Below are positions 8,897-49,882 of a DNA stretch of 49,882 nt, in pieces. The notes beneath the pieces are model-generated. The model ran no database searches and was not told the DNA's origin. It saw only the letters and a list, made by a program, of their open reading frames with translations. Position 1 is the stretch's first letter, and each line of letters opens with the position of its first letter. A program made the translations under genes and the position numbers. Source of the stretch: a virus; the IMG/VR virus record IMGVR_UViG_3300045988_133688, one strand, 5' to 3'.

Positions 8897-9673
8897 TTAT
8901 TTCTTATGTTTATTGCGTTTCAAACTCTTTGCCTCAGCTTCTGCTTGAGCTTTTATATTATCGATAGCATTATAGAATTGAAGTACTGTCATCTTTCTAG
9001 CGTCCATGTTTGTTTTTTGAGCTATGAGTAAACAAGTACTTTCAAATTGCTTATCATATTTAACCTCAACGGACTCACTTCCTATATATGTTTTCGGCGT
9101 ATGCATATTAAGCATCATTATATCTATAGCCTCAATTTGCTCTGAGTTATCAGTATCATTTATAACTGAGTCTAATACAAGAAGTGTTCTAGCTTTAAGC
9201 TTGTCATAAGCTTCTTTTTCCTTTGGATTTACAAAATCACCTGGAAAGTATATTTCTAGTTCACTTGTGACTTTTTTTTTAAGCCACAAAAGAAAATCTA
9301 TGACTTTAGAGTGCTTAACTTCTTTAAGGTCCTGAAGTAATTTTTTAAGCCCATCATCTGACAAGTCATTAACTTCTTTTCCATCCACACTATGTATAAG
9401 AGCAGCAAAAGCTAAATACTTCGGCGATATTTCACTGTTTACCATGTAGATATTCTGCCGCATATTTTGCAATTCCTGCAAAGCCTTTCTATTATTGTTT
9501 GATTTTATATACTTTGCTATCTTTACTATATGAGCGTCAATATCATCTGCGTCTGACCCAATGCCTGAGTCAATAAGCAGATATTTATTGTACTTTTGAA
9601 AATTTATGATTGGCATTTCATCTATGCTATCATAAACCCGTACAATTTTTTTATTTATAAGTAGGTTTTTCAT
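8897..9673 (-). CDS. Hypothetical protein in the tail-assembly-chaperone position (258 aa)
   Basis: Stop is 2 nt before the tape-measure ATG. Contains an A9 tract (T9 on the plus strand, 9272..9280) mid-gene. Confidence 0.5.
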   Translation of the reverse strand: MKNLLINKKIVRVYDSIDEMPIINFQKYNKYLLIDSGIGSDADDIDAHIVKIAKYIKSNNNRKALQELQNMRQNIYMVNSEISPKYLAFAALIHSVDGKEVNDLSDDGLKKLLQDLKEVKHSKVIDFLLWLKKKVTSELEIYFPGDFVNPKEKEAYDKLKARTLLVLDSVINDTDNSEQIEAIDIMMLNMHTPKTYIGSESVEVKYDKQFESTCLLIAQKTNMDARKMTVLQFYNAIDNIKAQAEAEAKSLKRNKHKK

Positions 9674-9942
9674 ATCAAAATTCGCGTTATAGGGGTTGAT
9701 ATTATTGGAATAAATAAGATATTCATCTCTCTAAAGAAAATAGCGAGAATGACAGCGAGAATGAGCGACGTCCAAAAACTTAAGCAAAAATCACAATCGA
9801 ACAATTGAGAAATTAGCTTAGGCGCTTTGGTAATTATATTGTCTCTTATACCTAATTTTCCAATCAGCAATATAACGAATGCTGCTGCTAAGGCTATATA
9901 TATTAAAGCCGAAAGCAATGTTATAAAATATACCGTTGACAT
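9670..9942 (-). CDS. Small integral membrane protein (90 aa) with CDFCLSFW motif
   Basis: Two to three hydrophobic helices (ITLLSALIYIALAAAFVILLIG; TSLILAVILAIFF). 4-nt overlap with the downstream gene. Confidence 0.6.
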   Translation of the reverse strand: MSTVYFITLLSALIYIALAAAFVILLIGKLGIRDNIITKAPKLISQLFDCDFCLSFWTSLILAVILAIFFREMNILFIPIISTPITRILI

Positions 9943-17725: not shown

Positions 17726-17740
17726 TGCAAATATACTAAT
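17726..17740 (-). promoter_or_regulatory. Late-type -7 promoter box (minus-strand reading ATTAGTATATTTGCA)
   Basis: 15-nt box identical to the one at 21456..21470. Lies in a 253-nt intergenic region. Confidence 0.55.
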
Positions 17741-17797: not shown

Positions 17798-17884
17798 ATT
17801 CTCGCATGATTTTTCTATTTTGATTATAATATCTCAAGGACAATATCTCAAAATGATTAGAAATTACGAGAATAATGCGAGAAT
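17798..17884. promoter_or_regulatory. ATTCTCGC-motif cluster: inverted copy at 17798..17807 plus an 11-bp-spaced tandem pair at 17866..17873 and 17877..17884
   Basis: ATTCTCGCAT on the plus strand. ACGAGAAT and GCGAGAAT read on the minus strand as ATTCTCGCATTATTCTCGT. An AATATCTCAA direct repeat (17829..17838 and 17842..17851) lies between them. Confidence 0.5.
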
Positions 17885-20822: not shown

Positions 20823-21434
20823 TTATGATTTTCTAAATGCGTCTAAAGGATTTACATAGCACCATTCAAAGCCATAAGCTGTACGTATAGAACCTCTACA
20901 GCATGCAGTAATGTTACTTGACTTTCCATTTATAACTTCTGCAGCTTCTTTTGCTGAGTTAAACATAACAGACTCTCCTGTTTTTCTATCAATTCTATAT
21001 ATTGGTTTGCACAGGCTATAAGATTTCAAGCTTGGGTTTGTTTGAAGCAGATTTTCTATGGTTTTCTTTTCTTCACTACTTTTAGCGCATGAAAGATTTA
21101 TTTGATTGTAACCATAAGGTATATAAGATTTGTTTGCCATTATGGTTTTATATTTTAGAGCAAATAAACGTTCTGGGTCAAAGATATTACTACCTACTAG
21201 TTCTACGGTAATATATTCACTTTCTCGTACGGCCTGGCTTATAGAGCTATTGCCTGTTGGTGAAAAATCATCAAAGGCATTAAGTATAAGTGCAGTAACT
21301 GCACTTATGACTGTTCTATTAAGAACGTGTCCTACATACAGCCTATTATCTTTTTCAAATTCAACAGTAAATACAGCGTATTTAGCATTTACATTGTCAG
21401 GCATATCTACTTTGTAGTTGTCTATGAGTATCAT
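20823..21434 (-). CDS. Homing-endonuclease-like protein (GIY-YIG-like N-terminus, NUMOD1-like C-terminal DNA-binding motif)
   Basis: AVFTVEFEKDNRLYVGHVLNR resembles GIY-x9-YIG-x-R. C-terminal MFNSAKEAAEVINGKSSNITACCRGSIRTAYGFEWCY matches the HEG helix-turn-helix pattern. Confidence 0.5.
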   Translation of the reverse strand: MILIDNYKVDMPDNVNAKYAVFTVEFEKDNRLYVGHVLNRTVISAVTALILNAFDDFSPTGNSSISQAVRESEYITVELVGSNIFDPERLFALKYKTIMANKSYIPYGYNQINLSCAKSSEEKKTIENLLQTNPSLKSYSLCKPIYRIDRKTGESVMFNSAKEAAEVINGKSSNITACCRGSIRTAYGFEWCYVNPLDAFRKS

Positions 21435-21536: not shown

Positions 21537-21830
21537 CATTGTTTACGGAAAATTCTTTTGTTTACGCTATAACTTATTGATTTTCAATAACATATCATTT
21601 TTTGGAAACAAAGGAACAAAAGAAACAAAGCCCTATTTAGGTTTATCTTAATCTCTTAAAAACCTATTTATATTAGTATATATTAGCTAATATAAATAAT
21701 AATCTATATTTTATATTTCTTCCTAACGTAATTTTTTATTGTTTATATTGTTTACAAGTGGTCTATTTTATTGAAAATCAATCACTTATGAAGAAACAAT
21801 CAATTGTTTACATTGTTTATTATTGTTTCT
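21537..21830. repeat. Iteron array 1: at least 7 copies of TTGTTTAY/TTGTTTCT, 3 inverted GAAACAA copies, and the palindrome TATATTAGCTAATATA (21679..21694)
   Basis: cattgtttac 21537, ttttgtttac 21556, ggaaacaaaggaacaaaagaaacaaagcc 21604..21632, tattgtttatattgtttac 21737..21755, gaaacaatcaattgtttacattgtttattattgtttct 21793..21830. Confidence 0.85.
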
Positions 21831-21900
21831 AGCCACTTTGCGAGAATGCCTGAAAAGAACGCTTTTGCGATTTTTGACTTGTAGCCACTTTGCGAGAATG
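21830..21900. repeat. Perfect 19-bp direct repeat TAGCCACTTTGCGAGAATG x2 (21830..21848 and 21882..21900)
   Basis: Read directly. Each copy contains GCGAGAAT. Period is 52 bp. Confidence 0.9.
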
Positions 21901-22416
21901 GAGACTTAACTCTCAAAGTTTTTCTGGATATTTGGATGAGTACCAGAATATATAAGGGGGTGCCCCGGTGCCGCACAGCCAGGGGCCTAAATTTTCACAT
22001 TTGTTAACAACCACACTGGCTCATTTCTACGCGTTCTATCGCATTTTGGCTTGGTAGCTGAGTACTTATATGCCTGACTGGCTCAGAGCGCGATACGGAA
22101 TGACTATGGATGCGAGGCATGGTGCCTGAGTGCTTGGTACCACGTTGCTCTCTACCTGAAACCGGCTATCAGCCAGACAGCCAGACGCCAACAAAGTTTA
22201 ACAAACATTTAACACAATATAACATAGCAAAAGTGCCATATCTGAAGAATTTTTATATGGTACTAGCTACCTGCTACCAGCCCATTAAAAAGTGTTAAAA
22301 CAACCAGGCGATTAACACAAATTTAACATGATAATTTTCCTATGTAAAAAGTTTAGCAGGTACCAAAAATAACTGAAAATTTTTATCCAAAAACTTTCAG
22401 GTGTCGGAAATTATAT

Positions 22417-22573: not shown

Positions 22574-22930
22574 ATGAAAGTAAACCGTAATTATCGTTTC
22601 GTCCTGACAGTTCTGGACAACGAACAGCTCAACGCAGGAGAAATCCGTATCGAGAACGACGCAGTATCTGGCGAGAGAATGTTTGCCAGCGAATGCCACT
22701 ACTATGCCGAGAAAAATATCCTCGAGTGCATTAAGGACGCAGCAAAGCGCGATGACTTGGGCAGCTACTACGCTCATACCTACTGTATCTACAAAGAGGA
22801 CAAACCGAAGAAGGTGGTAACAGAGCGCGAAGAAAACGGCAAAAAAATCACCGAGGAACAGCTCATTGACGGAACTGCAATGCTAGTCGAGGTGATAACT
22901 GTAGACGAAAATGGCGTGAATATCCGCTAA
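22574..22930 (+). CDS. Hypothetical protein (118 aa), first gene of the plus-strand block
   Basis: ORF track. GC-rich coding sequence. Confidence 0.65.
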   Translation: MKVNRNYRFVLTVLDNEQLNAGEIRIENDAVSGERMFASECHYYAEKNILECIKDAAKRDDLGSYYAHTYCIYKEDKPKKVVTEREENGKKITEEQLIDGTAMLVEVITVDENGVNIR

Positions 22931-27187: not shown

Positions 27188-27436
27188 TTCTAGGACACTT
27201 TTAGGTTTAAGATGTATATTTATATGGGTCAACTCATTTGAACGCGATAGAGGTCAAAAGAAGTGTATCTATCTATGAATTTTTATTGAGCCTAAAATAT
27301 AGATTTGATATGTTCTACGGCATTATGACTTGTGAACTTTACTGCAATATAGATAACTGTTAAATTTGAGGTAAAAAGTCGACTCATTCTCGCGCGTTCT
27401 AGGACACTTTTATTTTGAGCCCATATAAATATACAT
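27188..27436. repeat. Composite repeat: 16-bp direct repeat TTCTAGGACACTTTTA (27188..27203 and 27397..27412), each followed by one arm of a perfect 17-bp inverted repeat ATGTATATTTATATGGG (27212..27228) / CCCATATAAATATACAT (27420..27436)
   Basis: Read directly from the sequence. Confidence 0.9.
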
Positions 27437-27605: not shown

Positions 27606-27815
27606 CTATAAAAGAATAAAGATAAAACTGTTAAAAAGTGTTACATACTAGAGTAGCTGATTGCAGCTTGGCCCTATTGGTTAGGCAGTTTGAGCCTGAG
27701 TGCTCGAACTGTATTGGGCGTATACATAACGGCTTATGTGCCGGATGCCCACGCAAGAGTCCTGCGTTGGTAGTAAAATTGGCCGAGAGAATATCCGCCA
27801 CAACTGGACAGGAGA

Positions 27816-28070
27816 ATGGCCAAGAGAATAACAGGAGAAATGTTGAACAATTTTAATATAAAAAGCAATATGGAAAATATCGAACAAGAGAATACCCAAG
27901 AGGTACAGCAAGAGAATAACTTGCTTGAAGGAGCTCAGCCTGTTGCTCTTTCAGAAGAAACAACAGAAATGCCACAAGCAGTTCAGTTAGTACAGCCCAA
28001 AGAAGCTATAGATAATATGGCAGAAATTGAAAGGCAGTATCGTGAAACAATTGAGCGGGAGAATATATGA
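27816..28070 (+). CDS. Acidic hypothetical protein (84 aa; start uncertain, alternatives at 27840 and 27870)
   Basis: ORF track. ATGA overlap with the next ORF. Confidence 0.55.
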   Translation: MAKRITGEMLNNFNIKSNMENIEQENTQEVQQENNLLEGAQPVALSEETTEMPQAVQLVQPKEAIDNMAEIERQYRETIERENI

Positions 28071-28543: not shown

Positions 28544-28557
28544 TAGCCTAACAAGAG

Positions 28558-28600
28558 AAATATAGCGGGAGAATACATTAAGTAATTTCCCGCTATTTTT
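28558..28600. terminator. Bidirectional terminator between convergent operons
   Basis: ATAGCGGGA (28562..28570) pairs with TCCCGCTAT (28588..28596). Flanked by AAA upstream and TTTT downstream. Confidence 0.75.
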
Positions 28601-29310
28601 TATTCTTCCCGTATAACGAGAGAATAACCTAAAGCTCGCTTAGTTACAATCGATATTCTCTCATCCATTTTAAGATAATTTCGTAAATGGCATATATTTA
28701 CATCTAAGCTACGTTTATTCCAGTAATTATTTTCCCCTCGCCATAGTCTTTGCATTATTACACTTGTTTGTAATACCTCGCCTTCATAAGCACAAAGTAA
28801 AGCGAGCAGTTGAGTTTCTTTGGCAGGGAGCTTTATTTCAGTATTATCTATAGCAAGTGTATCACTAAGAACGTCAAATCTGTAATTGCCCAATCGATAA
28901 GCATTTTGAATTGTTCTTGTCTTTATGCCGCATCGTTTAAGGGCTATATTTATTTTACGCACAAGTATTTCAAGATTATACGGCCTGATTATATAGTCAT
29001 CTGCACCTTCATCATAAGCTTCAATTATGAATTGGTATTTTGACAAATCAGAAACCATAATAACAGGTGTAGACTTATCCGCTTTGCGCAGAATTTTCAA
29101 TAAAGATAAGTTGCCTATACCTACAGATTTATAATGGCTTAAAATGCATAAATCATAGCCGCCATTTTTTATCTTCTGTATTATATCTTCTCTGTTTGAA
29201 GTTATAACATCAAAACCGTAAAATATAAGGTAGTCAACCATTATGCTACAGTCTTCATCTTGATAAACAAGAATTTTCGGTTGTGATATAGCATCTTTAG
29301 AAGTTTTCAT
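28600..29310 (-). CDS. Atypical OmpR/PhoB-family response regulator (degenerate receiver plus winged-helix DNA-binding domain)
   Basis: Receiver-like KILVYQDED...YDLCILSHY...TPVIMVSD...GADDYIIRPY. Trans_reg_C-like YRLGNYRFD...LPAKETQLLALL...RLW...RSLDVNICHLRNYL...IVTKRALGYSL. Confidence 0.8.
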   Translation of the reverse strand: MKTSKDAISQPKILVYQDEDCSIMVDYLIFYGFDVITSNREDIIQKIKNGGYDLCILSHYKSVGIGNLSLLKILRKADKSTPVIMVSDLSKYQFIIEAYDEGADDYIIRPYNLEILVRKINIALKRCGIKTRTIQNAYRLGNYRFDVLSDTLAIDNTEIKLPAKETQLLALLCAYEGEVLQTSVIMQRLWRGENNYWNKRSLDVNICHLRNYLKMDERISIVTKRALGYSLVIREE

Positions 29311-30340: not shown

Positions 30341-30712
30341 TTAGTTATCTTTCTTTATACCTACTACTTGTTGTTTACCTTCTTGCTCTTCTTCAGCTTG
30401 TTTTAGTTCAACATAGGTTCTATGAAAAGCTTCATCACCTATTCCTTTAATAAAGGTTCTAAGCACAGAAGGATATTCATTTGTATCTATGGTTTTATCA
30501 ACTACTTTAACATAGAGAGCCGCAAGAGCTTTAGGCCCAAATACTTTCTTTTCTTGAAGTCTCTCAATAGGACCTCTTTTGAATTGAACACCTGGATGCT
30601 CATTCATTATCTTCGTGCGAGTTAGGAATAAATCCTTAATCAAAGCCTCAATGTGCTTTTCAAACTGAGGCATTTGTACCACATCAATTACCTTTAAGTC
30701 TGCTACTTTCAT
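30341..30712 (-). CDS. Hypothetical protein (123 aa)
   Basis: ORF track. Tightly coupled to neighbours. Confidence 0.6.
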   Translation of the reverse strand: MKVADLKVIDVVQMPQFEKHIEALIKDLFLTRTKIMNEHPGVQFKRGPIERLQEKKVFGPKALAALYVKVVDKTIDTNEYPSVLRTFIKGIGDEAFHRTYVELKQAEEEQEGKQQVVGIKKDN

Positions 30713-31395
30713 TCTTCCAATTTTTTAAGCTGTTCTTTATAAAAATTTTCTTTCATATCCCAGTGCCTTTCATATATATGAAGGTCATGAGCAAAATGGT
30801 AATATGTACCTATAGGCAAACCAAGTTCATCGGCTACTAACTGTTGAAGCTTGGTCCAGCAATACTGGTCATTACAAAAGCCATAAACCAAATCATTGCT
30901 TCGCATAGTTACACACATATCAAGAGTTTCAATGCCTGGCTTAATATCAAAACCTACAGACAAAGTACAAGGAGTATCATATTTATAATCATCCTTTTCT
31001 TTGCCATCAAAGATTGTAAACCAAGCTTGACGAGTATCTTTATTCTTTTTGAGCTGTTCAATGCATTTGGCTAATTGCTTATTGCGTGTCCACTGCCAAC
31101 CATAATTTGAATTGACTATGTTATCGCCTCCATGCATTTTATCCCACATAGGAGCAAACTTCTTAATTTCTGCTACGCTTCTATCGCCTGACATATACCA
31201 GGCATATTCGCGTTCAGCATATCGTTCGCTGAATTTGCGCCATTCTGTTGTTATAACGCGTTGCTGAGGATTACGTAAATAAAAGCCAACATTGTAAACA
31301 GCCTTTGTTCCAACATTAGTTTTTACTCCTTGACCTATAATAAAACCATATAGGTCCTCAAAAGCCTCAGTTGCATTTTTATATGCTATATTCAT
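30709..31395 (-). CDS. Deoxycytidylate (dCMP) hydroxymethylase-like enzyme, thymidylate-synthase superfamily
   Basis: EREYAWY, NSNYGWQW, catalytic-Cys context DTPCTLS, and MRSNDLVYGFCND ending in Asp rather than the Asn of thymidylate synthases. Confidence 0.75.
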   Translation of the reverse strand: MNIAYKNATEAFEDLYGFIIGQGVKTNVGTKAVYNVGFYLRNPQQRVITTEWRKFSERYAEREYAWYMSGDRSVAEIKKFAPMWDKMHGGDNIVNSNYGWQWTRNKQLAKCIEQLKKNKDTRQAWFTIFDGKEKDDYKYDTPCTLSVGFDIKPGIETLDMCVTMRSNDLVYGFCNDQYCWTKLQQLVADELGLPIGTYYHFAHDLHIYERHWDMKENFYKEQLKKLEE

Positions 31396-31553
31396 GCTTC
31401 TTCATATTCAAAGTTTAACACTAGAGTTGCGCCATAGTCATACCAGAGAACTTCTTCAAGCTCTTCTTTTGTATGGCAATTATATCGGCACATCTCAGCT
31501 TCTAAGTCAGCCGGACTATCTATTATAAGAGTATTTTCAGCTATTGTTGCCAT
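31392..31553 (-). CDS. Small hypothetical protein (53 aa from the ATG at 31553)
   Basis: Track ORF 31392..31619. The ATG at 31553 lies 1 nt after the upstream stop. Confidence 0.5.
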   Translation of the reverse strand: MATIAENTLIIDSPADLEAEMCRYNCHTKEELEEVLWYDYGATLVLNFEYEEA

Positions 31554-31554
31554 A

Positions 31555-32010
31555 TCATTTAACAGGTTTATTTGTATTGCTATTGTAAACTCTAAACAAA
31601 AGCTCTTCGGCTTCATCATTCATGGCTTTGCATATAGCTAATGCTTCTTCCATGGATAAATCTTTGAGCTCTTCATCGTCGTCATTAAAAGCAATTTCAC
31701 CAGTTATTACTCTAATCTCAAACGAATTGGTTAAAGCAAATGTTTTAGCTGCATCGAGTGCTTGTACGCATATATAATGTACAGCATCCCAATATATGTA
31801 TGATAAGGTATTTGAGCCATCCAGTATCTTGATATATAATTCTCTCAACTTCTCAGGCTTAAACATACCTTGCTCATCCATTCGCCTATATTCAGCGAGC
31901 CATCTTCCATAACCGTTTGTTGCTCTAAATCTGTTAGCATAAACTGCTACAAATCTGAGAAACTGGTCTGTATAAATAACTTCTGGTATTTCTACTGCTT
32001 TCTTTTTCAT
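31555..32010 (-). CDS. Hypothetical protein (151 aa from the ATG at 32010)
   Basis: Track ORF 31555..32046. The ATG at 32010 forms an ATGA overlap with the stop of the 58-aa ORF upstream. Confidence 0.6.
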   Translation of the reverse strand: MKKKAVEIPEVIYTDQFLRFVAVYANRFRATNGYGRWLAEYRRMDEQGMFKPEKLRELYIKILDGSNTLSYIYWDAVHYICVQALDAAKTFALTNSFEIRVITGEIAFNDDDEELKDLSMEEALAICKAMNDEAEELLFRVYNSNTNKPVK

Positions 32011-32183
32011 TTGCTGAATTTTTGTTTCAAATATGAAAAATTCCACATAATGGTCTCATATACTTCTTCAGGCTCATGTATTAGTATTGCTCCACGACAT
32101 ATATCGGTCATATTTATTGTGCCTTTATTACGAAGTTTCACAAATTTGAAAAATTGCTCTTTTGTTATTTCTTCTGCTTTCAT
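32007..32183 (-). CDS. Small hypothetical protein (58 aa, below the ORF-track cutoff)
   Basis: My own translation: MKAEEITKEQFFKFVKLRNKGTINMTDICRGAILIHEPEEVYETIMWNFSYLKQKFSK. It fills an otherwise empty gap. Confidence 0.5.
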   Translation of the reverse strand: MKAEEITKEQFFKFVKLRNKGTINMTDICRGAILIHEPEEVYETIMWNFSYLKQKFSK

Positions 32184-32200
32184 ACGCTTAAGATTTATAT

Positions 32201-32285
32201 ATTCTCGCGCGCTCTAGAGCCCATGCGTTTTTCTGAATATATTTCTTTTGTTTCATACTTTGCATGCGATATTACGCGCGAGAAT
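32201..32285. repeat. 11-bp inverted repeat ATTCTCGCGCG (32201..32211) / CGCGCGAGAAT (32275..32285), 63-nt spacer
   Basis: Read directly. Lies in the intergenic gap between the dUTPase-like gene and the 58-aa ORF. Confidence 0.9.
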
Positions 32286-32304
32286 AATGTATAAATCAAT
32301 TCAT

Positions 32305-32799
32305 TTAATAACTTCCAGTCGAGCCCATAGCTCCATCACCTCTTTCAGAAGAACGACTAAAAAGCTCTGCTTCAGGTACTTCTTCAAGTCCTTCATAAGA
32401 CACAGGCACAAGAATAAACTGCGCTATCTTCATACCTGGTTTAATGTGAACTTTGGCTCTACCGACATTCACAACATGAATATGTATCTCTCCCTGATAG
32501 TCTTCGTCGACAATCTTGGCACCGAGTATAACAATACTTTCAAATGCCTCTGCCTTCGGTGTTCTACCAGCTCCAAGGCATGCCCATTTAGAAGTTACTA
32601 CACCTGATTTGTCAGCGGCCATAAGCATATAGCCCTCGGGAATTTCCATCTTAATACCAGACGGTATAAGAACATCAGTTCCTGGATTGACTATAAAGCC
32701 TTTGTTACCGCCAAAATTTGGAACGAAGAAATCAATTCCAGCAGCTTTACCAGTTCCACGAACTGGAGACTTTACATTTCTTATTTTGCAGAATTTCAT
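32305..32799 (-). CDS. dut: Trimeric dUTPase-fold nucleotide pyrophosphatase
   Basis: AAGIDFF (motif I), GAKIVDEDYQGEI (motif III), RGDGAMGSTG (motif V). Motif II is DKSG instead of the usual (P/G)RSS. Confidence 0.8.
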   Translation of the reverse strand: MKFCKIRNVKSPVRGTGKAAGIDFFVPNFGGNKGFIVNPGTDVLIPSGIKMEIPEGYMLMAADKSGVVTSKWACLGAGRTPKAEAFESIVILGAKIVDEDYQGEIHIHVVNVGRAKVHIKPGMKIAQFILVPVSYEGLEEVPEAELFSRSSERGDGAMGSTGSY

Positions 32800-32800
32800 A

Positions 32801-33613
32801 TTACTTCTTTTTATTACTTGGTTTTTCTACTGGAGCTTTAGGAGCTTTTACGTCTCCGGGTTTACGCTTCAATACCCAAAGAGTATTGCGTGCCACACCA
32901 GGGAACATAGGAGCCATGATATTGGCAATGAGATTTGAGTCGTAATAACTCTTAAGAGCTTCAAACATCTTCTTTTGCCAATCATTCATGAGAGGCTTGT
33001 AGTCCTTCATTGAAGCAAATGTACCAAACTTCTTTACGATAGTAAAGTGCTGAGACAGTATAGCTTCGAGCTCCCAATGGTCAAACTCTTGTACATCAAC
33101 CCCGCGGCCATCGCCAGAGTCATAAGTGTGATTACCTGCCGCTCCTACTTCTGGGTCATAGTTAGGAGTTGAAAGGTAATAAGTAGCATTGTTATTGCCA
33201 CAGGCCTTGAAGTTCTCAAGAAATACGTGAGCATTCTGCTTTCCTACATGCTCAAGCACCTCAAAGGTACATACCTTGTCAGCATTGAATTTGCTGAAGT
33301 CCAAGTCATGTTTTACAAGGTCAGCTACATAGAAATGGGCCCAAGGCACATCCTGATACTTCTCGGCCGCTTCATTGATAGTCTTTTCGCGAATATCGAT
33401 GCCGATATACTCTTTCTGCTTGAACTTGTTTCGATACAATACTTCAAGCAAGTTAGCTGCTCCACAGCCGAAGTCTACGATTGACTCGCCAATCTTTGCT
33501 TCCTTGAGAATGTGCGTCCAACGCAAGTAATGCGCAAACTGGTCTCTGTGAAATACGTGACGCTCAAAGGCCTGGTCTGGTCTGAGGTCTGTTGTGTTAT
33601 ACACTTTCGCCAT
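32801..33613 (-). CDS. Class I SAM-dependent methyltransferase with a Lys/Pro-rich basic tail
   Basis: IVDFGCGAANLLE (motif I), IGIDI, CTFEVLEHV. C-terminus KPGDVKAPKAPVEKPSNKKK. Substrate not inferable. Confidence 0.7.
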   Translation of the reverse strand: MAKVYNTTDLRPDQAFERHVFHRDQFAHYLRWTHILKEAKIGESIVDFGCGAANLLEVLYRNKFKQKEYIGIDIREKTINEAAEKYQDVPWAHFYVADLVKHDLDFSKFNADKVCTFEVLEHVGKQNAHVFLENFKACGNNNATYYLSTPNYDPEVGAAGNHTYDSGDGRGVDVQEFDHWELEAILSQHFTIVKKFGTFASMKDYKPLMNDWQKKMFEALKSYYDSNLIANIMAPMFPGVARNTLWVLKRKPGDVKAPKAPVEKPSNKKK

Positions 33614-33627
33614 AATTAAAAAACTGT

Positions 33628-33918
33628 TTATTTATTGAAAATATCTTTATGCTCTTCCAGATAGTCATTCATAGAGCCCATATAAGCTACTGCATCAAGA
33701 AGATTATCCTCTTTATGCGCATAAGCTTCGCGTGATAACTTAAGAGCTATCATGGCTCTATACATACCAGCAGTTGTTATTTGCTGGTCTTTGGGCGACA
33801 TCAAATTATAAAGAGCCGCTGCTCTTTCCATTGACGCCTGGAATGGCCCGTATTGGCGCTCTTTTTCTTCTGAGCGCTCATTTACGATTTTGTTTGCTTG
33901 TTCTAAGATGTTAGCCAT
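33628..33918 (-). CDS. Small all-alpha protein resembling the MazG-like / DUF6378 (dATP/dGTP diphosphohydrolase N-terminal) family
   Basis: Pattern ...ERQYGPF...MIALKLSRE...DNLLDAVAYMG. Family assigned from memory. Confidence 0.4.
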   Translation of the reverse strand: MANILEQANKIVNERSEEKERQYGPFQASMERAAALYNLMSPKDQQITTAGMYRAMIALKLSREAYAHKEDNLLDAVAYMGSMNDYLEEHKDIFNK

Positions 33919-34159
33919 TGTTTATTAAAGTTTTAAGTTCTTCTTTTAATCTTCTTGCATCTGCTCCTCTAAATGTTTGAGCATTGGCCAAGAAGTATCT
34001 TGTAATATCTCCGGCCGTCTCAATTCCATATAGAGCTTCTGGGTCTGTTGTATCAAGCGTTAATAATGCCTCAAGATAAGGCACTGCTCCAAAGTATATA
34101 TTCATCCAAGTTGACTTTACGTCTCTGGCTATTTGCTGAAATGTTCTTTTCTTGTCCAT
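33911..34159 (-). CDS. Hypothetical protein (82 aa)
   Basis: ORF track. Has its own promoter box at 34177..34193. Confidence 0.6.
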   Translation of the reverse strand: MDKKRTFQQIARDVKSTWMNIYFGAVPYLEALLTLDTTDPEALYGIETAGDITRYFLANAQTFRGADARRLKEELKTLINNG

Positions 34160-34176: not shown

Positions 34177-34193
34177 AGATATGCAAATATACT
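34177..34193 (-). promoter_or_regulatory. Internal promoter box (minus-strand reading AGTATATTTGCATATCT)
   Basis: Contains TAnnTTTG. Flanking sequence is homologous to the 44195..44260 promoter region. Confidence 0.5.
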
Positions 34194-34265
34194 AATTTTC
34201 TCCGAGAATAGAAAATTTTTCCTCATAAAAATTACATATTTAACACTTCTTAACTTGGCCACGCA

Positions 34266-36419: not shown

Positions 36420-36712
36420 TTATTTAGCATTATATCTTCTATGAAATTTATCACATCTTCAACAGAGTCAATTACTTCGACTCTAAAGCCAAGAGCTCTA
36501 AGCTTTTTGTGCATATAGGTTTGTATGCGTCTTGGCTTTTGGCCTGTAGTTTTAGTTTCCACAAATGCCATTTTATGGTTAGGAAATAAGCAGAGCCTAT
36601 CAGGTAGACCTATTAGCTGGTCACATAATAGCTTTATGCACATGCCATTATTTATTTTGACAAGCTCCACTAATTTCCGTTCTACTAGTTTCTCGCTATC
36701 TATTTGCTTCAT
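36416..36712 (-). CDS. VRR-NUC domain nuclease
   Basis: GLPDRLCLFPNHKMAFVETKTTGQKPRRIQ, the D...E-x-K pattern of VRR-NUC. 98 aa. Confidence 0.7.
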   Translation of the reverse strand: MKQIDSEKLVERKLVELVKINNGMCIKLLCDQLIGLPDRLCLFPNHKMAFVETKTTGQKPRRIQTYMHKKLRALGFRVEVIDSVEDVINFIEDIMLNK

Positions 36713-39310: not shown

Positions 39311-41287
39311 CTAATCTTTCAAATAGAATGGTGTAGTATAACCATCAGCTCTCAATGGAAGGTCAGATGCCCACTCAGGAGGAGTGCCCATAATTCTTGC
39401 CATTTCCTCATAATATGCTTGCGCATTCTCTTCTGGAACTTCAACAAGGCATTCATCATGAATATGGCATACAGGATAATAACCTGCACTTTCGAGTTGA
39501 AGCATAGAACTACCAAGCAAATCACGAGCTATTGCCTGTACTATGTTCTCTGTTAGTTTACCACCATAAGTATCTATTTCTCCCCATTGTTTAGTCTCTT
39601 GCACAACCCCTTGATAGCATAATACTCGAGTCGGCATTGTAGACCTGCCTATTTTCTTATCTTTGAACCGTGGCCCATAATAGAATAACTTTCTACCAGA
39701 AGGCAATTGAATTGTCATAAATTCGCCATCACAGTCAAAGATTATTTTTCTGCATGTACATGAAACTGGCCTTTGATAACGAACAGCTTCTTTTGAAGCT
39801 TCATCAATTTCCTTCCACATATCCACAATTGCAGGATTTGCCATGCGCCACTTACGCACCAGGCTCATCATTTCAGTGTCTGATAAACCCATTCGCTCAC
39901 CGCCCATTCGCTTAAGTGCTCCTAATGAGCCCTCATAACCGAGTGCAAGCTCTGAGATTTTTGACTTATCGCGTAATACTGAGCCTTTGGTAATTGATGA
40001 AATAGGCACATTGAACATCTTTGCACCTGTCGCTTCATAAATCTTGCCATCGCCTCTAAATACATCCATGCGCCATTTTTCATTGGCAAGCCAAGATATA
40101 ACTCGTGCTTCAATAGCTGAGAAGTCTGCGACACTAAACACTTTGCCTTTTGGAGCAATAAGTGCTGTTCTTACAAGTTGCGAAAGAATATCTGCAACAT
40201 CATCATACATCATCTCAACTGTTTCCCAATCACGAGCTCTGATTAGCTCACGCGGTACTTCAATATGTGATATGTGGTTCTTTGATAAGTTCTGCAACTG
40301 CAATAATCTACCTGCCCATCTACCAGTTCTATTTGCGCCATAGAATTGGAATGTACCTCTAACTCTGTGGTCTTTCATAGCGCAGTTGAGCATAGCATAA
40401 TACTTCTTAATTGAAGTTTTTGATAGTTTTTTGCGTATATTGAGCAACTCAATTACATCTGGATAGTCTGCAAACTCTTTAAGCAAGTCAGGCATTGTTT
40501 CTTTTGAAAGTGACAATACAGCATTGCCTGTTTTCTTTTCTATCCATTGCCGAATTTGTACAGGCGAATTTGGATTTTCAAGACCTGTTAACTGCTGAGC
40601 ATGTTGAGTTAGTATAGAAGTATAAGTATTATCTACTGCAATAGCAGACTCTGCTAACTCCATATCTACCAAAATACCTCTATCATTGATATTCTGGTCA
40701 AGCACGTACATTTCTCGCTCAATCTTTGGAATGATATAAGACTCTAATCTATGAAATATCTCACGCTCAGCTAAGACATCATATTTATTATACTCTTTAT
40801 ACATTTCCCACTTCTCAGGAGCATGTTCTGGATAGTTGCGCGTACGCATTCCGTTAACTCTGGTTGCTTTGCATGGGCATGAAAAATACTTAATAAGTGC
40901 TTTACCTGTATCAAGCTTCTTATCTGTAAGATTAAGAGCCTTTGATACACCATCCAATGAAAGTGGTAAACCGCAATATGCGGCTTTCACTGAAGTACAA
41001 TACCACTGTTCTGCTGGGATGTTATAACCTATTCGCTTAAAACTAAGTCGCTCAAATACTGCATTATGAGCAACTTTTACACACTCTGGGTCAAGCAATG
41101 CTTCTTCAAACTCTTCAGGCATTTCTTCGCCTTGAGCTAAATCAATAATGTTAACTGGTCCATCATCTAATGCATATCCTATAATCAGTATTTCAAAGTC
41201 CGGTGACTCTATATATTTATAGGCACCAGAGTCTTTAATATCTACTGAGGAAAATGTTTCGACGTCTATGAAAAGATATTTCGCCAT
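39311..41287 (-). CDS. Family A DNA polymerase with 3'-5' exonuclease domain
   Basis: LFIDVETFS (Exo I), YNKYDV (Exo III-like), DFSAIEARV (motif A), RDKSKISELALGYEGSLGAL (motif B), CHIHDECLVE (motif C). Confidence 0.9.
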   Translation of the reverse strand: MAKYLFIDVETFSSVDIKDSGAYKYIESPDFEILIIGYALDDGPVNIIDLAQGEEMPEEFEEALLDPECVKVAHNAVFERLSFKRIGYNIPAEQWYCTSVKAAYCGLPLSLDGVSKALNLTDKKLDTGKALIKYFSCPCKATRVNGMRTRNYPEHAPEKWEMYKEYNKYDVLAEREIFHRLESYIIPKIEREMYVLDQNINDRGILVDMELAESAIAVDNTYTSILTQHAQQLTGLENPNSPVQIRQWIEKKTGNAVLSLSKETMPDLLKEFADYPDVIELLNIRKKLSKTSIKKYYAMLNCAMKDHRVRGTFQFYGANRTGRWAGRLLQLQNLSKNHISHIEVPRELIRARDWETVEMMYDDVADILSQLVRTALIAPKGKVFSVADFSAIEARVISWLANEKWRMDVFRGDGKIYEATGAKMFNVPISSITKGSVLRDKSKISELALGYEGSLGALKRMGGERMGLSDTEMMSLVRKWRMANPAIVDMWKEIDEASKEAVRYQRPVSCTCRKIIFDCDGEFMTIQLPSGRKLFYYGPRFKDKKIGRSTMPTRVLCYQGVVQETKQWGEIDTYGGKLTENIVQAIARDLLGSSMLQLESAGYYPVCHIHDECLVEVPEENAQAYYEEMARIMGTPPEWASDLPLRADGYTTPFYLKD

Positions 41288-41316
41288 TATTTCTTAATTT
41301 GATATTATAAAATTAG

Positions 41317-41397
41317 GAGTATAGGCGGGACTCGAACCCGCATAACAGGCACACAAACCAATGGCGCTCTGTGGTTTTACCATTAAACTACTATACT
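41317..41397 (-). tRNA. tRNA-like gene with a non-canonical anticodon arm (isotype undetermined)
   Basis: Minus strand: acceptor AGTATAG/CTATACT, D arm GTTT-AATGGTA-AAAC, T arm GCGGG-TTCGAGT-CCCGC. The middle 31 nt folds as ACAG-A-GCGC / 11-nt loop CATTGGTTTGT / GTGC-CTGT, not as a 5-bp stem with a 7-nt loop. Confidence 0.5.
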
Positions 41398-44205: not shown

Positions 44206-44222
44206 CGATATGCAAATATACA
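44206..44222 (-). promoter_or_regulatory. Early leftward promoter box (minus-strand reading TGTATATTTGCATATCG)
   Basis: Identical core to the plus-strand early boxes. Confidence 0.6.
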
Positions 44223-44336
44223 AATTATTCTCGAAAGAAAAAAATTTTTCCTATATTTTTTGAGAATTTTCTTGTTAAAAAACATTAAACAGCAATTTTG
44301 CATTTCCGGCGCTGCAATTCTATATAAATAAAGGCT

Positions 44337-44542
44337 GTAAACAATGGAAACAATAGAAACAAAGCCTCGTATATTTCTAACCTAATTTCTTAAATTCCGA
44401 TTAACTCTATGGTTAATCAATATCTAGATTAGCGTAATATAAAAGATTTATATTTCTATTGTTTACATTGTTTACAGCATATCTAAGTGATTGATTTTGA
44501 GCACTTTAGAGCATAAACAATGGATTGTTTCTATTGTTTATC
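44337..44542. repeat. Iteron array 2, homologous to 21537..21830
   Basis: gtaaacaatggaaacaatagaaacaaagcc 44337..44366, ctattgtttacattgtttac 44456..44475, ataaacaatggattgtttctattgtttatc 44513..44542. The core aagtgattgatttt (44485..44498) is inverted relative to locus 1. Confidence 0.85.
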
Positions 44543-44547
44543 ATCAT

Positions 44548-45186
44548 TTACCGCTTTATGGATACATATTCACAGTTCATAATTTCTGTGTTTGGGTTTT
44601 CACTTACTACATCTACTTGCCTGCTTTTAACCTTATTGGTTTTCCACAAGAAACCCAAAAAGCGCTTATATGTAACTGTCTCCACTACTTTTAATGACTC
44701 TCTATTGTTGATTTGTAACTCTACGGTATCTCGTCTTAAATCTACGCAACCTTTTACGTCTGTCCATTTAGACTTATAATCAAAACACTTCAGGGTATCT
44801 ATCTGATTTGTAGTGGTATCAATTCTTATAGAATCTTGTAGCTTGGCATATAAAGTGCTTATAGTTTCATACTGAGAGGTAATTATCTTCTGTAAGTCAG
44901 ACTTTCCTGCTTTTAGCTGTTCAATGAGCTTTAGGTCTTCACTTCTATATCGCTTATATTCCTTAAGCGTTAACTCAAGTTCAGATACTCGCACAGCATT
45001 GAGACTATCAGATACTTTATATTTCTGACTTTCAGACATTACAAACTCTTTTTCTGTAAGCAATATATCTTGATTACTTTTTAGCCTAGCATTTTCTTCC
45101 TTTAAGCCGTGTATTTTGCTGAAGGCAAATACCAGTGCCATAATGGCTACGGCTATTATAGCTATCTTTATGATTATCTTTTTCAT
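44548..45186 (-). CDS. N-terminally membrane-anchored coiled-coil protein, last gene of the lysis region (212 aa)
   Basis: KIAIIAVAIMALVFAF anchor followed by a coiled coil. Downstream of the amidase. Spanin-like or lysis-accessory role is inference. Confidence 0.55.
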   Translation of the reverse strand: MKKIIIKIAIIAVAIMALVFAFSKIHGLKEENARLKSNQDILLTEKEFVMSESQKYKVSDSLNAVRVSELELTLKEYKRYRSEDLKLIEQLKAGKSDLQKIITSQYETISTLYAKLQDSIRIDTTTNQIDTLKCFDYKSKWTDVKGCVDLRRDTVELQINNRESLKVVETVTYKRFLGFLWKTNKVKSRQVDVVSENPNTEIMNCEYVSIKR

Positions 45187-45195
45187 GCTTTAATT

Positions 45196-45215
45196 ATTCT
45201 CGCGTATTCTCGCAT
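45196..45215. promoter_or_regulatory. Tandem 10-bp direct repeat ATTCTCGCGT ATTCTCGCAT, 10 nt from the ATG of 44548..45186
   Basis: Read directly from the sequence. Confidence 0.6.
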
Positions 45216-45249
45216 TAAGATTATTACTACTTAAGTATTATATCACACA

Positions 45250-45299
45250 TAATATAAAAGCCATTCTCGGAATAATTTCTTATATACGAGAATGGCTTT
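45250..45299 (-). terminator. 13-bp perfect hairpin AAAGCCATTCTCG / CGAGAATGGCTTT followed on the minus strand by TATATT; intrinsic terminator after the amidase gene
   Basis: Arms at 45257..45269 and 45287..45299, 17-nt loop. Both arms contain the ATTCTCG motif. Confidence 0.6.
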
Positions 45300-45307
45300 A
45301 ATCAGTT

Positions 45308-45733
45308 TTAGAGGTCTTTATACTCATGCTTTGCATCAAAGCTGGGACAAGCCTTTGCAGCAAATTCTCTGTGTCCATGTATGGTCGCATTTGGATATTT
45401 TGCTTTAAGTTCTTTGAGCAGTTTGAGCAAAGATTGCTTTTGAGCGTCAGTGCGCGTATCTTTCGGTGTTTTACCGTCTTTGGCTACTCCACCAACATAA
45501 CAAACACCGATTGAATTGGCATTTTGACCTGAGCAGTGAGCTCCAATTACGCTTTCGTCTCTGCCTTTATGAATAGAGCCATCGAGCTCAATTACATAAT
45601 GGTAACCAATATCTTTCCAATGATTGCCATTAACATGCCAATCTTGAATAGTTTCGGTTTTGACGTCTTTTCCTTCAGGCGTTGCAGAGCAATGCACTAT
45701 GAGTTTATTGATTTTTCTCATTGTCTTTGTCAT
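45308..45733 (-). CDS. N-acetylmuramoyl-L-alanine amidase (Amidase_2 / PGRP fold endolysin)
   Basis: LIVHCSATPEG, DIGYHYVI, GAHCSGQNANSIGVCYVGG, HGHREFAAKACPSF. Confidence 0.85.
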   Translation of the reverse strand: MTKTMRKINKLIVHCSATPEGKDVKTETIQDWHVNGNHWKDIGYHYVIELDGSIHKGRDESVIGAHCSGQNANSIGVCYVGGVAKDGKTPKDTRTDAQKQSLLKLLKELKAKYPNATIHGHREFAAKACPSFDAKHEYKDL

Positions 45734-46190
45734 TTAAGGTGATTATTTTTGTTATCTCATTAAGTATTTCGTGGCCTTGCTCTGCAGTGGCTGCTTGTAC
45801 AATTTTCTTTACTATATCAGGCACATCAGCTGCATGAGCCTTTTTGCGCTTACTGTTCTCCACAACAGATTTACCCTCAATGTAGATTACAGCTATAGTA
45901 CACAGAATTGTAGCAAACGGTACTATATAGAATGATAACAAGCTTCCCAGTATATCAAACATAAGAGCGAAAAGCATTAGCCTTACATAGTCGCCTATTT
46001 TTGTAACAGTTCTACGAAAACCATGCGACATAAGTGCTTGGCCTAATGCTTTTGCTGTAGTTGTTCCACTCCAGAAGTCCACGATACTACTGACCACCAT
46101 GAAAAACCAGCAAACTAAGATTATTCCGACTCTAACTGCTATGAAAAACATGAGTGCGTCGATATTCTTGGCTTCAATGAGTTCTAGCAT
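45705..46190 (-). CDS. Holin-like membrane protein (161 aa)
   Basis: Three hydrophobic helices, DFWSGTTTAKALGQALMSHGFRRTVTKIGDY pattern, charged C-terminus. Lies immediately upstream of the amidase. Confidence 0.7.
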   Translation of the reverse strand: MLELIEAKNIDALMFFIAVRVGIILVCWFFMVVSSIVDFWSGTTTAKALGQALMSHGFRRTVTKIGDYVRLMLFALMFDILGSLLSFYIVPFATILCTIAVIYIEGKSVVENSKRKKAHAADVPDIVKKIVQAATAEQGHEILNEITKIITLNDKDNEKNQ

Positions 46191-48733: not shown

Positions 48734-49882
48734 TTATAAGCCCTGTAAGAAGTTTTCATATATATATGACATTCTTTCATGGCCAAGAGCTGTTAGATGT
48801 ACGGCGTCGATGAAATAATCAGCCTGTTCTGCACAATCTTTCCTTAATCCAGATTTAGCTGTACCATCTATACACTGTATATGATAAAATTCACATCTTT
48901 CTTTTATCCATGCGGCTCTAGGCTTAAGAGATGTTCCACCGAAGTAATAAGGCTCTATAAATCCTATTTTAGCTTTAGGATAATTACTTTGCAATCCTTT
49001 CACAAGCACATTGAATGCTCCTTTGAAAGTTGTTGTATCTTCACTGTTATCATCTATTTCTGCGTTAAAGCCATCATTATACCCGATTTGAACTAGTATG
49101 TAATCAGAATTTTCAGCTATTTCTGCATAAGTATCAACAAGTGATGTTTCTGCTCCTGTGATTAGTTTACGTCCATTTATTGCATAGTTATTTACAGTCA
49201 TTCCATTTCTGTTTGCTATCAGGGCCCCATAAGTGTTCTGTTTTCCTATAGAATGGCCAGCGGCTTCACTATCTCCAGTTATAGATAATATTTTTCCATT
49301 CAGATAATTCGGCTTTGCTGATTTTATATTGTTTTGTACTATTTCTTCTATATATTCTTCTGTCAAAGGAATACTTTGTATGCCTATGACGCTGATAACT
49401 TTTTGTACAACTAGTTTTTGAACATACTTTACAGTATCACCGACTTTAGCTGTAGCTACAGCTGAAATACCAACTGCATATTGAACATTACTGAAATTAC
49501 CGTTTGAGCAATATTTATCATTACCTAGTATAAACAGAGCATTTCCTGCTTTTAACCTTAAGTTCAAGTCAGATACAGTGTTTTCTCCTATTATTGCATC
49601 AGGAATATCTAAAATGGATAGCACAACAAATGATTTAGCATCTGTGTTTTCATTACCACATACTACTATTTTATTATTGGTCTTTACTTTTCCCGATACA
49701 TATTTAATTTCATTTATAGTAACGGCGGTATCAAATATCATGCCGAAATATGTGCTTTCATTCAATTGAGTTTTTTCTAAATTAGAAGCATTAAACTCTG
49801 ATTGTATGCCAGCATTACCGACTTGTTCTTCCAGACTATCTATTGATGCTTCCAGACTATCTATTGATGCTTCCAGACTATC
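48734..49882 (-). CDS. Tail fibre, C-terminal part with SGNH/GDSL esterase domain (continuation of the 1..1161 gene)
   Basis: The frame of ORF 48734..49765 stays open to nt 49882 (DSLEASIDSLEASIDSLEEQVGNAGIQ...), 39 codons and in phase with nt 1. SGNH blocks: ITGDSEAAGHS (I), AINGRKL (II), VQIGYNDG (III), DAVHLTALGH (V). Confidence 0.8.
   Translation of the reverse strand, partial: DSLEASIDSLEASIDSLEEQVGNAGIQSEFNASNLEKTQLNESTYFGMIFDTAVTINEIKYVSGKVKTNNKIVVCGNENTDAKSFVVLSILDIPDAIIGENTVSDLNLRLKAGNALFILGNDKYCSNGNFSNVQYAVGISAVATAKVGDTVKYVQKLVVQKVISVIGIQSIPLTEEYIEEIVQNNIKSAKPNYLNGKILSITGDSEAAGHSIGKQNTYGALIANRNGMTVNNYAINGRKLITGAETSLVDTYAEIAENSDYILVQIGYNDGFNAEIDDNSEDTTTFKGAFNVLVKGLQSNYPKAKIGFIEPYYFGGTSLKPRAAWIKERCEFYHIQCIDGTAKSGLRKDCAEQADYFIDAVHLTALGHERMSYIYENFLQGL
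49831..49882. repeat. Right-end copy of the 21-bp tandem repeat (49835..49855, 49856..49876, partial 49877..49882)
   Basis: Nt 49835..49882 are identical to nt 1..48. Confidence 0.95.

Follow-up and report, generated by a model that had tools for sequence, protein, structure and literature searches.

The phage genome held in IMG/VR as record IMGVR_UViG_3300045988_133688 (49.9 kb, 37.8% G+C, analysed at its full length and referred to here as the window) carries at 45196-45215 two head-to-tail copies of a short box, directly upstream of a gene of the lysis region that encodes a DUF6549 protein. We tentatively propose that this tandem is an operator belonging to a phage-wide set of TGCGAGAAT boxes, that it is probably read by an OmpR/PhoB-type response regulator encoded by the phage itself (28600-29310), and that it would act as a roadblock or repressor on transcription reading through into the DUF6549 gene. 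The site was singled out in a first-pass annotation made from the sequence alone, which saw in it the best candidate binding site for that regulator. The evidence comes from the conservation of the tandem, the distribution of the box across the window and the co-occurrence of box set and regulator in related phages; the coordinates of the features are collected in Table 1.

The tandem and its conservation

The tandem was originally described as a perfect direct repeat of 10-bp period, 10 nt from a start codon. Its position and its exact 10-bp period stand, but the two units, ATTCTCGCGT (45196-45205) and ATTCTCGCAT (45206-45215), share nine of their ten bases, and although the repeat is indeed close to the start codon of the minus-strand gene (45184-45186) the gap is 9 nt. 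Read on the gene strand the tandem is atGCGAGAAT-ac-GCGAGAAT, or more fully aatGCGAGAATacGCGAGAATaattaaagcATG. Adjacent 10-mers with at most one difference occur at four loci in the window against 1.9 +/- 1.5 in Markov-1 simulations, and a two-copy decamer repeat alone is not significant.

Conservation was examined in 28 loci around DUF6549 homologues (proteins 69-96% identical; 25 distinct sequences), and in all 28 CGAGAAT-N3-CGAGAAT stands at a constant 9 nt from the ATG. The second copy together with the two bases that follow it, CGAGAATAA (7-mer plus AA), is invariant in 25/25 distinct relatives and the first copy is intact in 24 of the 25; the 3-nt spacer between the boxes varies (acg, tag, atg, aaa). 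Selection has left a clear mark on the boxes themselves at this locus, since the near-invariant tandem lies beside about 45 nt, between terminator and tandem, that exist in four unrelated versions among the relatives. Within the box set this is the best-conserved tandem.

The Bacteroidota-type -7 box TAnnTTTG occurs neither downstream of the tandem nor in the spacer that separates it from the terminator, in the window or in any relative, and no relative has a conserved promoter-like sequence between terminator and ATG. Two other features of this short region were considered and set aside. The spacer contains, near 45232-45240, a perfect sigma-70-type extended -10 (TGATATAAT), which is conserved in no relative and is of the wrong promoter type for the host group, and an upstream open reading frame (ORF) running across the tandem (ATG CGA GAA TAC GCG AGA ATA, peptide MREYARIIKA) has no ATG in those relatives that read atagCGAGAAT.

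The hairpin between the amidase gene and the tandem has the arms AAAGCCATTCTCG and CGAGAATGGCTTT, a 13-bp stem and a 17-nt loop, followed on the minus strand by the U-rich tail UUUUAUAUU; with a stable stem and a U-rich tract it has the appearance of an intrinsic terminator. The earlier statement that the tandem lies downstream of a terminator hairpin with ATTCTCG arms holds, both arms carrying the 7-mer: the upper stem is ATTCTCG/CGAGAAT (45263-45269 and 45287-45293), and with the two copies in the tandem there are four boxes within about 100 bp. The 7-mer arms hardly vary among 18 distinct relatives, and the lower stem shows a compensatory change from GCC/GGC to ACC/GGT. When 45187-45307 is folded the terminator persists, and the tandem takes part in no more than a weak local hairpin. 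No complementary copy that might serve as an antiterminator partner lies upstream of the terminator, the extra CGAGAAU copies all being downstream, and the locus does not appear to be a terminator/antiterminator RNA switch.

The 17-nt loop of this terminator (45270-45286) is found in both orientations among the relatives L004-L031 (tgtataagaaattatta and taataatttcttataca). As both are seen on each of three flanking haplotypes, the loop would have flipped at least three separate times, in a manner that resembles the small hairpin-associated inversions known from chloroplast spacers.

The box family across the window

The 7-mer ATTCTCG (CGAGAAT on the other strand) is present in 17 copies, against 4.9 +/- 2.1 in shuffled sequence, and none of 100 shuffles reaches 17. 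Intergenic DNA makes up 9.65% of the window and contains 14 of the 17 copies (binomial ~3e-12, a figure to be read with the copies being clustered and not independent), and the word is the sole non-A/T-rich 7-mer among the top intergenic words. The motif is therefore not equally frequent inside coding regions, which the first-pass annotation had named as the finding that would speak against it, and enrichment together with conservation in relatives marks it as a conserved intergenic family of cis-elements. The extended consensus, drawn from 163 distinct contexts, is T-G-CGAGAAT-(A/G); a looser 10-mer with two mismatches is not enriched (83 observed, 77 expected).

All of the further sites given in that annotation exist, namely the pair of 11-bp period at 17867/17878, the 19-mers at 21830-21848 and 21882-21900, the copy at 27386 and the pair at 32201/32279. 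These are indeed all intergenic, but the same cannot be said of the whole set, as three copies are coding (9744/9756 and 41441). Besides these three, the copies additional to the earlier list are an inverted partner at 17798 and the promoter-embedded copies at 34203 and 44227. The copies at 9744/9756 read as the codons ATT CTC GCT within the peptide ILAVILA. They form a box pair of 12-bp period (9744-9762, minus strand) inside gene 9670-9942, where they encode ILA-V-ILA in a predicted membrane helix; the peptide repeat accounts for the pair, which was not taken as a box site. It could be a coincidence or a further site, the relatives at hand having been selected by the pattern itself.

By context, the tandem at 45196-45215 (period 10) and the pair at 17867/17878 (period 11) are free tandems, and a hairpin-arm class comprises the terminator copies (45263/45287), those of element B (32201/32279) and the copy at 17798, which is paired with the 17.8-kb tandem. 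In cluster A the minus strand reads ATTCTCGcattATTCTCG, of 11-bp period, right after a stop codon, then an inner hairpin and then CGAGAAT. In cluster D the relatives have 2-6 copies of TTTGCGAGAATG in one common orientation, amongst which a 12-bp period occurs. The basal stem of element B is AUUCUCGCGCG/CGCGCGAGAAU; no variation is seen among 40 sequences in the outer eight pairs of the element (UAUUCUCG/CGAGAAUA), and up to 19 of the 40 have compensatory changes in the inner stem, with G.U pairs that work on the sense strand only. The inverted pair at 32201-32285 of the first-pass annotation and the 17.8-kb cluster exist, but the former and part of the latter are basal stems of conserved RNA hairpins. 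The copy at 27386 is likewise real but is not a conserved site, relatives having GAGAATgaacGAGAAT about 90 nt away instead.

A number of further observations touch on these elements. Element B is an 86-nt intergenic hairpin without a U-tract, hence no canonical terminator, and its role may lie in processing, in stabilisation or in attenuation. A 22-aa ORF inside it, with a 'LERAR' reading shared with 27386, was rejected as it contains stop codons in most relatives and the stem covaries as RNA. The 611-nt ORF-free stretch around 27386 contains TTCTAGGACACTTTTA twice, 209 nt apart (27188-27228 and 27397-27436), each copy being followed by the 17-mer CCCATATAAATATACAT, once per orientation; the stretch has no Rfam match. 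In the 56-nt gap between convergent gene blocks a hairpin followed by a T-run (28556-28596) has the arms GCGGGAGAAT and ATTTCCCGC, which look like degenerate box copies. To the right of the box array of cluster D, the G+C-rich element GGGGGTGCCCCGGTGCCGCACAGCCAGGGGCC (21955-21990) is conserved in all relatives.

Co-occurrence of the boxes with the regulator

The strongest evidence for a link between the boxes and the regulator is their co-occurrence across phages, which holds in both directions. Related genomes were available as pieces of 4-21 kb, and the comparison covers about 20 kb around the regulator together with the DUF6549 locus. The same box architecture was found at 80 of 80 regulator loci, the regulators being 52-100% identical, and consists of the inverted pair of element B 78 nt apart, a '+ + -' triple beside the terminase, 2-6 copies of TTTGCGAGAATG in the control region and promoter-embedded copies. 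In the other direction, a scan for the element B hairpin yielded 105 loci, 99 of them from this family, and every one of the 48 hairpin loci that extend 4.2 kb or more on the correct side encodes the regulator. Relatives that have no regulator are also without the box set, and this strict co-occurrence of motif and regulator supports part of the reading in the first-pass annotation. A scan of IMG/VR for CGAGAAT-N3-5-CGAGAAT was set aside, the matches listed being swamped by chance ones.

The regulator-less lineages are three: BF503P2 (large terminase, TerL, 66% identical), L230/L231 (TerL 71%) and L241, and the terminase of L230/L231 is as close to that of the window as are those of some regulator-positive phages. 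No match to the regulator was found in the 50 kb of BF503P2 or in its GenBank record. Box clusters are absent from all three lineages, L230/L231 and L241 having 0-3 scattered 7-mer copies in 9-21 kb each and BF503P2 having 11 unclustered copies in 50 kb, nine of them inside annotated genes. Two of them nevertheless still have hairpins at equivalent positions, but the arms differ (CCTGGAAGAGCTTT for BF503P2, CTGGGATGACTT for L231), and BF503P2 has a terminator before its DUF6549 gene without the tandem. The hairpin arms of these regulator-less relatives share a recurring CTGGAAGAGC / CTGGGA(A/T)G, and there are hints that each lineage may have its own arm 'code'.

Another kind of repeat, TGTTTAC in direct orientation (period 9-11, PhoP-box-like), was considered as the site of the regulator and rejected, as it is also present in the regulator-less L231 and L241. 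Two intergenic regions, 21540-21830 and 44285-44545, are packed with TGTTT(A/C) direct repeats of 9-11 bp period and share a TTGAAAATCAA / AATCAATCACTTA box; the TGTTTAC repeats and the TTGAAAATCAA box look more textbook OmpR-family than do the CGAGAAT boxes. These repeats are candidates for origin iterons or for sites of a factor conserved in the wider phage group.

An atypical response regulator

The regulator has both domains of its family, the receiver domain PF00072 (REC) at 35.5 bits (cut-off 30.2) and the winged helix PF00486 (Trans_reg_C) at 54.6 bits (cut-off 26.2). Its sequence relatives in the PDB, aligned end to end, are RegX3, PrrA, MtrA and KdpE. An AlphaFold2 model (predicted local distance difference test, pLDDT, 83.7) has a (beta-alpha)5 domain, a 4-strand sheet and a winged helix, for which Foldseek gives a probability of 1.00 to KdpE, RpaA and PrrA; the top matches are KdpE-DNA, RpaA, CosR and HP1043, and the atypical GlnR and RitR are also among the matches. 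The protein had been called an orphan winged-helix regulator, and it is a genuine REC plus winged-helix protein of the OmpR/PhoB type, but it is no standard orphan as its acceptor Asp is replaced by Ser58, which at the end of beta-3 stands opposite the acceptor Asp in the alignment with RegX3. In 64 distinct IMG/VR variants this position is S in 58 and G in 6; D is found in only a few database homologues.

About 60 ORFs of the window were scanned for domains, the three largest being left out, and no HisKA or HATPase_c kinase domain was found among them (a few structural ORFs fell outside the scan); a partner kinase of the host is conceivable. With the acceptor Asp replaced by Ser58 and no kinase domain among the scanned ORFs, the regulator is probably independent of phosphorylation. 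Its recognition-helix region is conserved at 71-79%, against 55-60% for the whole protein. The bacterial genomes scanned for the regulator gave a single contig of a metagenome-assembled genome, which is another phage of this family. The PHROGs entry of the regulator family, phrog_731, is of unknown function, and we found no description in the literature of a phage-encoded response regulator that controls phage genes.

Recognition on DNA or RNA

The promoter-associated copies point to recognition of the boxes on DNA. Transcription starts and ends were inferred from sequence throughout, and upstream of such starts the boxes stand at fixed gaps of 6, 11 (in the opposite orientation) and 23 nt from the -7 elements; it is these fixed distances, together with the lack of the boxes in promoters of the regulator-less relatives, that argue for a DNA site. 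In the 23-nt class, known from ten distinct sequences with four unrelated spacers, the box is where a -33 element would be. This activator-like geometry is found at the late promoter of relatives and not at 45196-45215.

For the copies in hairpins, the simplest reading would be that the hairpins are ancestral RNA features, as the regulator-less relatives have them too, and that their bases became fixed as protein-binding boxes as well in this family, which would leave box stems invariant where ordinary stems covary. Box-plus-hairpin junctions between genes occur at 17.8, 32.2 and 45.2 kb, that at 17.88 kb lying directly after a stop codon and that at 32.18 kb lying 20 nt before an ATG, and they are compatible with a general role in controlling read-through. 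A bolder suggestion, which we consider unlikely but worth stating, is that the 7-mer is in double use, as a DNA operator of a phosphorylation-independent regulator and as an RNA hairpin stem, with regulator on boxes within and next to the hairpins making tunable stops of them.

Proposed mechanism and alternative explanations

In the mechanism that we propose, the TGCGAGAAT boxes would be read on double-stranded DNA, and the most likely reader would be the phage's own atypical OmpR/PhoB-type regulator, probably active without phosphorylation; that it binds the boxes we infer from the co-occurrence of box and gene. The DUF6549 gene must then owe its transcription to polymerase passing the terminator, as would also be the case in BF503P2, since there is no promoter between terminator and gene. 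The regulator sitting on the tandem, and perhaps also on the boxes in the terminator arms, would then limit the late transcription that reaches DUF6549 and beyond. Classic class I/II activation of DUF6549 from the tandem is unlikely, as a protein on the tandem would sit 9-28 nt before the ATG and there is no promoter further downstream. Autoregulation of the regulator is suggested by the make-up of its operon, with element B at its head and a box-containing promoter in front.

Several points weigh against such a mechanism. The negative direction of regulation is a guess from position and geometry only. The box period differs by site, being 10 or 11 bp here and also 12 bp in relatives, which is unusual for a rigid head-to-tail dimer, and the core of the box contains G/C, unlike, to our knowledge, most known OmpR-family boxes. 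Roughly every second copy serves as an arm of an RNA hairpin or terminator and is clearly under selection as RNA, which calls for an explanation of its own. Repression of a lysis-region gene by a protein that should accumulate over time is not an obvious design. Finally, the regulator is not alone in its distribution, as about seven genes in the 20 kb examined share it, several of them of unrecognised fold.

It is this last point that lends some weight to another phage protein of the same distribution, for instance that of 22574-22930 or 30341-30712, as the reader of the boxes on DNA, with the regulator binding elsewhere; we regard this as unlikely, though a possibility to be reckoned with. 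The genes at 22574-22930, 27638-27856, 30341-30712, 32801-33613 and 33628-33918 are present in 22/22 regulator-positive loci and absent from the outgroups, and 33911-34159 has the same distribution among IMG/VR loci with no match in the regulator-positive locus L242. The small proteins amongst them have no recognisable fold or family, and PDB sequence searches with three gave nothing informative. The variable period of 10, 11 or 12 bp, atypical of OmpR/PhoB dimers, also speaks for this reading. However, among the co-distributed genes only that of the regulator encodes a recognisable sequence-specific DNA-binding protein, the architecture of 7-bp half-sites in direct repeat suits the regulator, and the conservation of its recognition-helix region parallels that of the invariant box; furthermore no second conserved family-specific repeat was found that could be its site instead, the TGTTTAC repeats being present in regulator-less phages as well. 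Two other candidate readers were set aside: the NUMOD/helix-turn-helix protein of 20823-21434 is an unlikely one, being present in the outgroups too and only 29-36% identical among family members although the box does not vary, and the domains of the S-adenosylmethionine (SAM) methyltransferase of 32801-33613 are of a generic small-molecule type. An action in RNA, whereby CGAGAAU copies and hairpin arms steer termination, mRNA processing or the start of translation through an RNA-binding factor, a nuclease or alternative pairing of AUUCUCG with CGAGAAU, strikes us as decidedly unlikely. It would suit the place of the tandem, which lies in a transcribed leader and always 9 nt from the ATG, the use of the 7-mers as stems in element B, cluster A and the terminator with compensatory and G.U changes that fit sense RNA only, and the recurrence of the box-plus-hairpin junctions. 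It does not suit the conserved copies in untranscribed promoter DNA, which keep a fixed -7 spacing in both orientations, nor the arrays of cluster D, which have no canonical promoter upstream; nor does the terminator have a complementary copy upstream for an antiterminator or the tandem a strong partner in the minimum-energy fold, and neither an RNA-binding protein nor an Rfam family was detected.

It would seem improbable that the 7-mer is a promoter element read by the polymerase, with a host sigma or a phage factor, and that the tandem is a promoter or decayed promoter giving a leaderless or short-leader DUF6549 mRNA. The TGCGAGAAT box does resemble an extended -10 (TGnGAGAAT), the 11-mer CGAGAATAATT is common to the tandem and the promoter at 44220, a related (C/T)G(A/G)(A/G)AAT-N6-TATATTTG is found in most strong promoters of the window, and near-leaderless transcription has a parallel in gene 1164-2021, where the -7 box ends 4 nt before the ATG. 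Host-type promoters are, however, all TAnnTTTG and no such box follows the tandem; regulator-less relatives of the same host group, as judged from TerL similarity and shared TAnnTTTG promoters, are without such an element in their promoters; the first copy has no TG in some relatives (atagCGAGAAT); and no sigma factor or RNA polymerase gene was found among the ~60 ORFs scanned. That the repeat is functionless, having arisen through duplication or gene conversion between terminator-like hairpins with a common stem sequence, is most improbable of all. Chance alone would give a two-copy decamer about twice per window and hairpin loops here flip and recombine readily, but the tandem is near-invariant amid a highly variable neighbourhood in 25 distinct relatives, other copies hold a fixed promoter spacing and the box set strictly co-occurs with one gene set.

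Similarity to known systems

A close parallel to the regulator-read tandem proposed here is with the direct-repeat operators of OmpR/PhoB-family regulators, such as the pho boxes bound by PhoB; cyanophage genomes carry pho boxes that are bound by the PhoB of the host. Operators of this family have at least two half-sites of 6-8 bp about 10-11 bp apart, and such an arrangement is found at 45196-45215. As the first-pass annotation noted, OmpR/PhoB proteins bind head-to-tail to direct repeats about 10-11 bp apart, and the 7-bp half-sites at 10 bp here and at 11 bp at 17.8 kb have this architecture. Also alike are the several sites per regulon and the overlap of some sites with the upstream promoter element, as in the gap-23 class of the relatives. 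Unlike in pho-box systems, the regulator is a phage product without the acceptor Asp, the box contains G/C and has a period of 10 to 12 bp, the tandem is in a leader 9 nt from an ATG and half of the boxes double as RNA hairpin stems; a site upstream of or overlapping the upstream promoter element, as expected for activation, is not seen at 45196-45215. The site has the anatomy of an OmpR/PhoB direct repeat and the protein the fold of the family, but the acceptor Asp is missing, as is the activator geometry at this site.

In having a full REC and winged helix, a substituted acceptor and no partner kinase the regulator resembles the atypical OmpR-family proteins HP1043/HsrA, CosR, GlnR, RitR and ChxR, to which it is only ~20-25% identical. 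Those are chromosomal regulators of cellular genes, whereas the apparent regulon of the phage protein is the phage genome itself, and the family to which it belongs is of lytic type.

Two phage systems also invite comparison. The stoperators of mycobacteriophage L5 and its like are short asymmetric sites bound by the gp71 repressor, which is thought to stop elongating polymerase; they have a uniform orientation relative to transcription and serve prophage immunity. Many copies of a short site in short intergenic regions, and the roadblock action proposed for the tandem, are features in common, but the orientation of the present boxes is mixed and many are hairpin arms or embedded in promoters. 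Protein p4 governs the early/late switch of phi29 from sites placed differently at several promoters. Here too there would be one small phage DNA-binding protein with sites variously placed relative to promoters, by which it could repress some and activate others; the fold is unrelated, however, and at the promoters of the present phage nothing indicates the direction of regulation.

Genome setting and other features

The window is the genome of a tailed phage whose TerL is 66% identical to those of the Bacteroides fragilis phages BF503P2, BF486P2 and relatives; a megablast of the region against GenBank phages gave no match. Strong promoters in the window are of the Bacteroidota type with the -7 element TAnnTTTG, eight TTAGTATATTTGCA-like boxes of this kind preceding gene blocks, and promoter type and terminase similarity together suggest a gut phage of the Bacteroides type. 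A leftward gene run begins at ~21.4 kb with packaging, head and tail genes and continues from the other end of the window with holin, amidase, DUF6549, replication and nucleotide metabolism, and finally the regulator; small early genes form a rightward block from ~22.4 to 28.5 kb. The DUF6549 protein has an N-terminal transmembrane helix followed by a coiled-coil-like region. No integrase was found among the ~60 ORFs scanned.

The nucleotide-metabolism cluster (30709-33918) encodes a thymidylate-synthase-like protein, a dUTPase, the class I SAM methyltransferase and DUF6378, of which the last two are specific to the regulator-carrying family. ThyA-like genes are annotated as dCMP hydroxymethyltransferases in BF503P2, and the phage DNA may contain a modified base. 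The -7 box of gene 1164-2021 is TATATTTG at 2021-2040 on the minus strand, and its closeness to the ATG implies an mRNA that would be leaderless or nearly so. A tRNA gene is present at 41316-41397 on the minus strand (Rfam, 46.4 bits), to which ARAGORN gives an unassignable four-base anticodon (ccat); it is the only Rfam match beyond noise at gathering and permissive thresholds. A long palindromic stretch (22054-22200) gave spurious miRNA-precursor matches on both strands, and the small ORF at 22110-22298, with a homologue in one of 22 relatives, is probably not a gene.

Table 1. Positions of the tandem, of the other boxes and hairpins and of neighbouring genes in the window, and of hairpins in two regulator-less relatives.
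Feature	Position	Strand	Remarks
Tandem boxes	45196..45215	-	10-bp period, ends 9 nt before DUF6549 ATG
Variable spacer, terminator to tandem	45216..45256	-	without Bacteroidota-type -7 box TAnnTTTG
Intrinsic-terminator-type hairpin downstream of amidase gene	45257..45299	-	-19.9 kcal/mol, z = -7.3
DUF6549 gene, last of lysis region, directly downstream of tandem	44548..45186	-	Pfam PF20186, 1.6e-29; phrog_14010
N-acetylmuramoyl-L-alanine amidase (endolysin), upstream of terminator	45308..45733	-	Pfam PF01510; phrog_822, 2.9e-62
Holin	45705-46190		leftward block
Atypical OmpR/PhoB-family response regulator, last gene of its operon	28600..29310	-	Pfam PF00072 + PF00486
Cluster A, upstream of promoter at 17735	17798..17884	-	three boxes invariant in 14 relatives, inner hairpin sequence replaced
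Cluster D, two 19-mers TAGCCACTTTGCGAGAATG, 52 bp apart, divergent control region	21830..21900	+	
Single copy in 611-nt ORF-free region	27386..27392	+	not conserved in relatives
Element B, conserved RNA hairpin heading gene block that ends with regulator	32196..32290	-	-31.8 kcal/mol, z = -5.6
Promoter with embedded box, opposite orientation: ATTCTCG, 11 nt, TATATTTG	34184..34209	-	
Promoter of replication module with embedded box: CGAGAAT, 6 nt, -7 element TATATTTG	44213..44233	-	kept in 12/12 distinct relatives
Hairpins in BF503P2 (L152)	36510-36590, 49550-49590, 40380-40470		
Hairpins in L231	7680-7750, 10950-10975		

Implications

Phage response-regulator genes such as this one are otherwise catalogued merely as being of 'unknown function' (phrog_731). 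Here a family of ~50-kb gut phages, known from more than 100 contigs, carries a regulator gene with some 15 strictly co-occurring boxes, at promoters, at terminators and at a gene of the lysis region, which offers a concrete candidate regulon for an abundant and unstudied group of human-gut phages. The regulator would also be a natural example of a receiver domain that has been kept after losing its phosphorylation site. If the double use of the 7-mer in DNA and RNA were true, one protein would time early, middle, late and lysis expression through read-through as well as through promoters.

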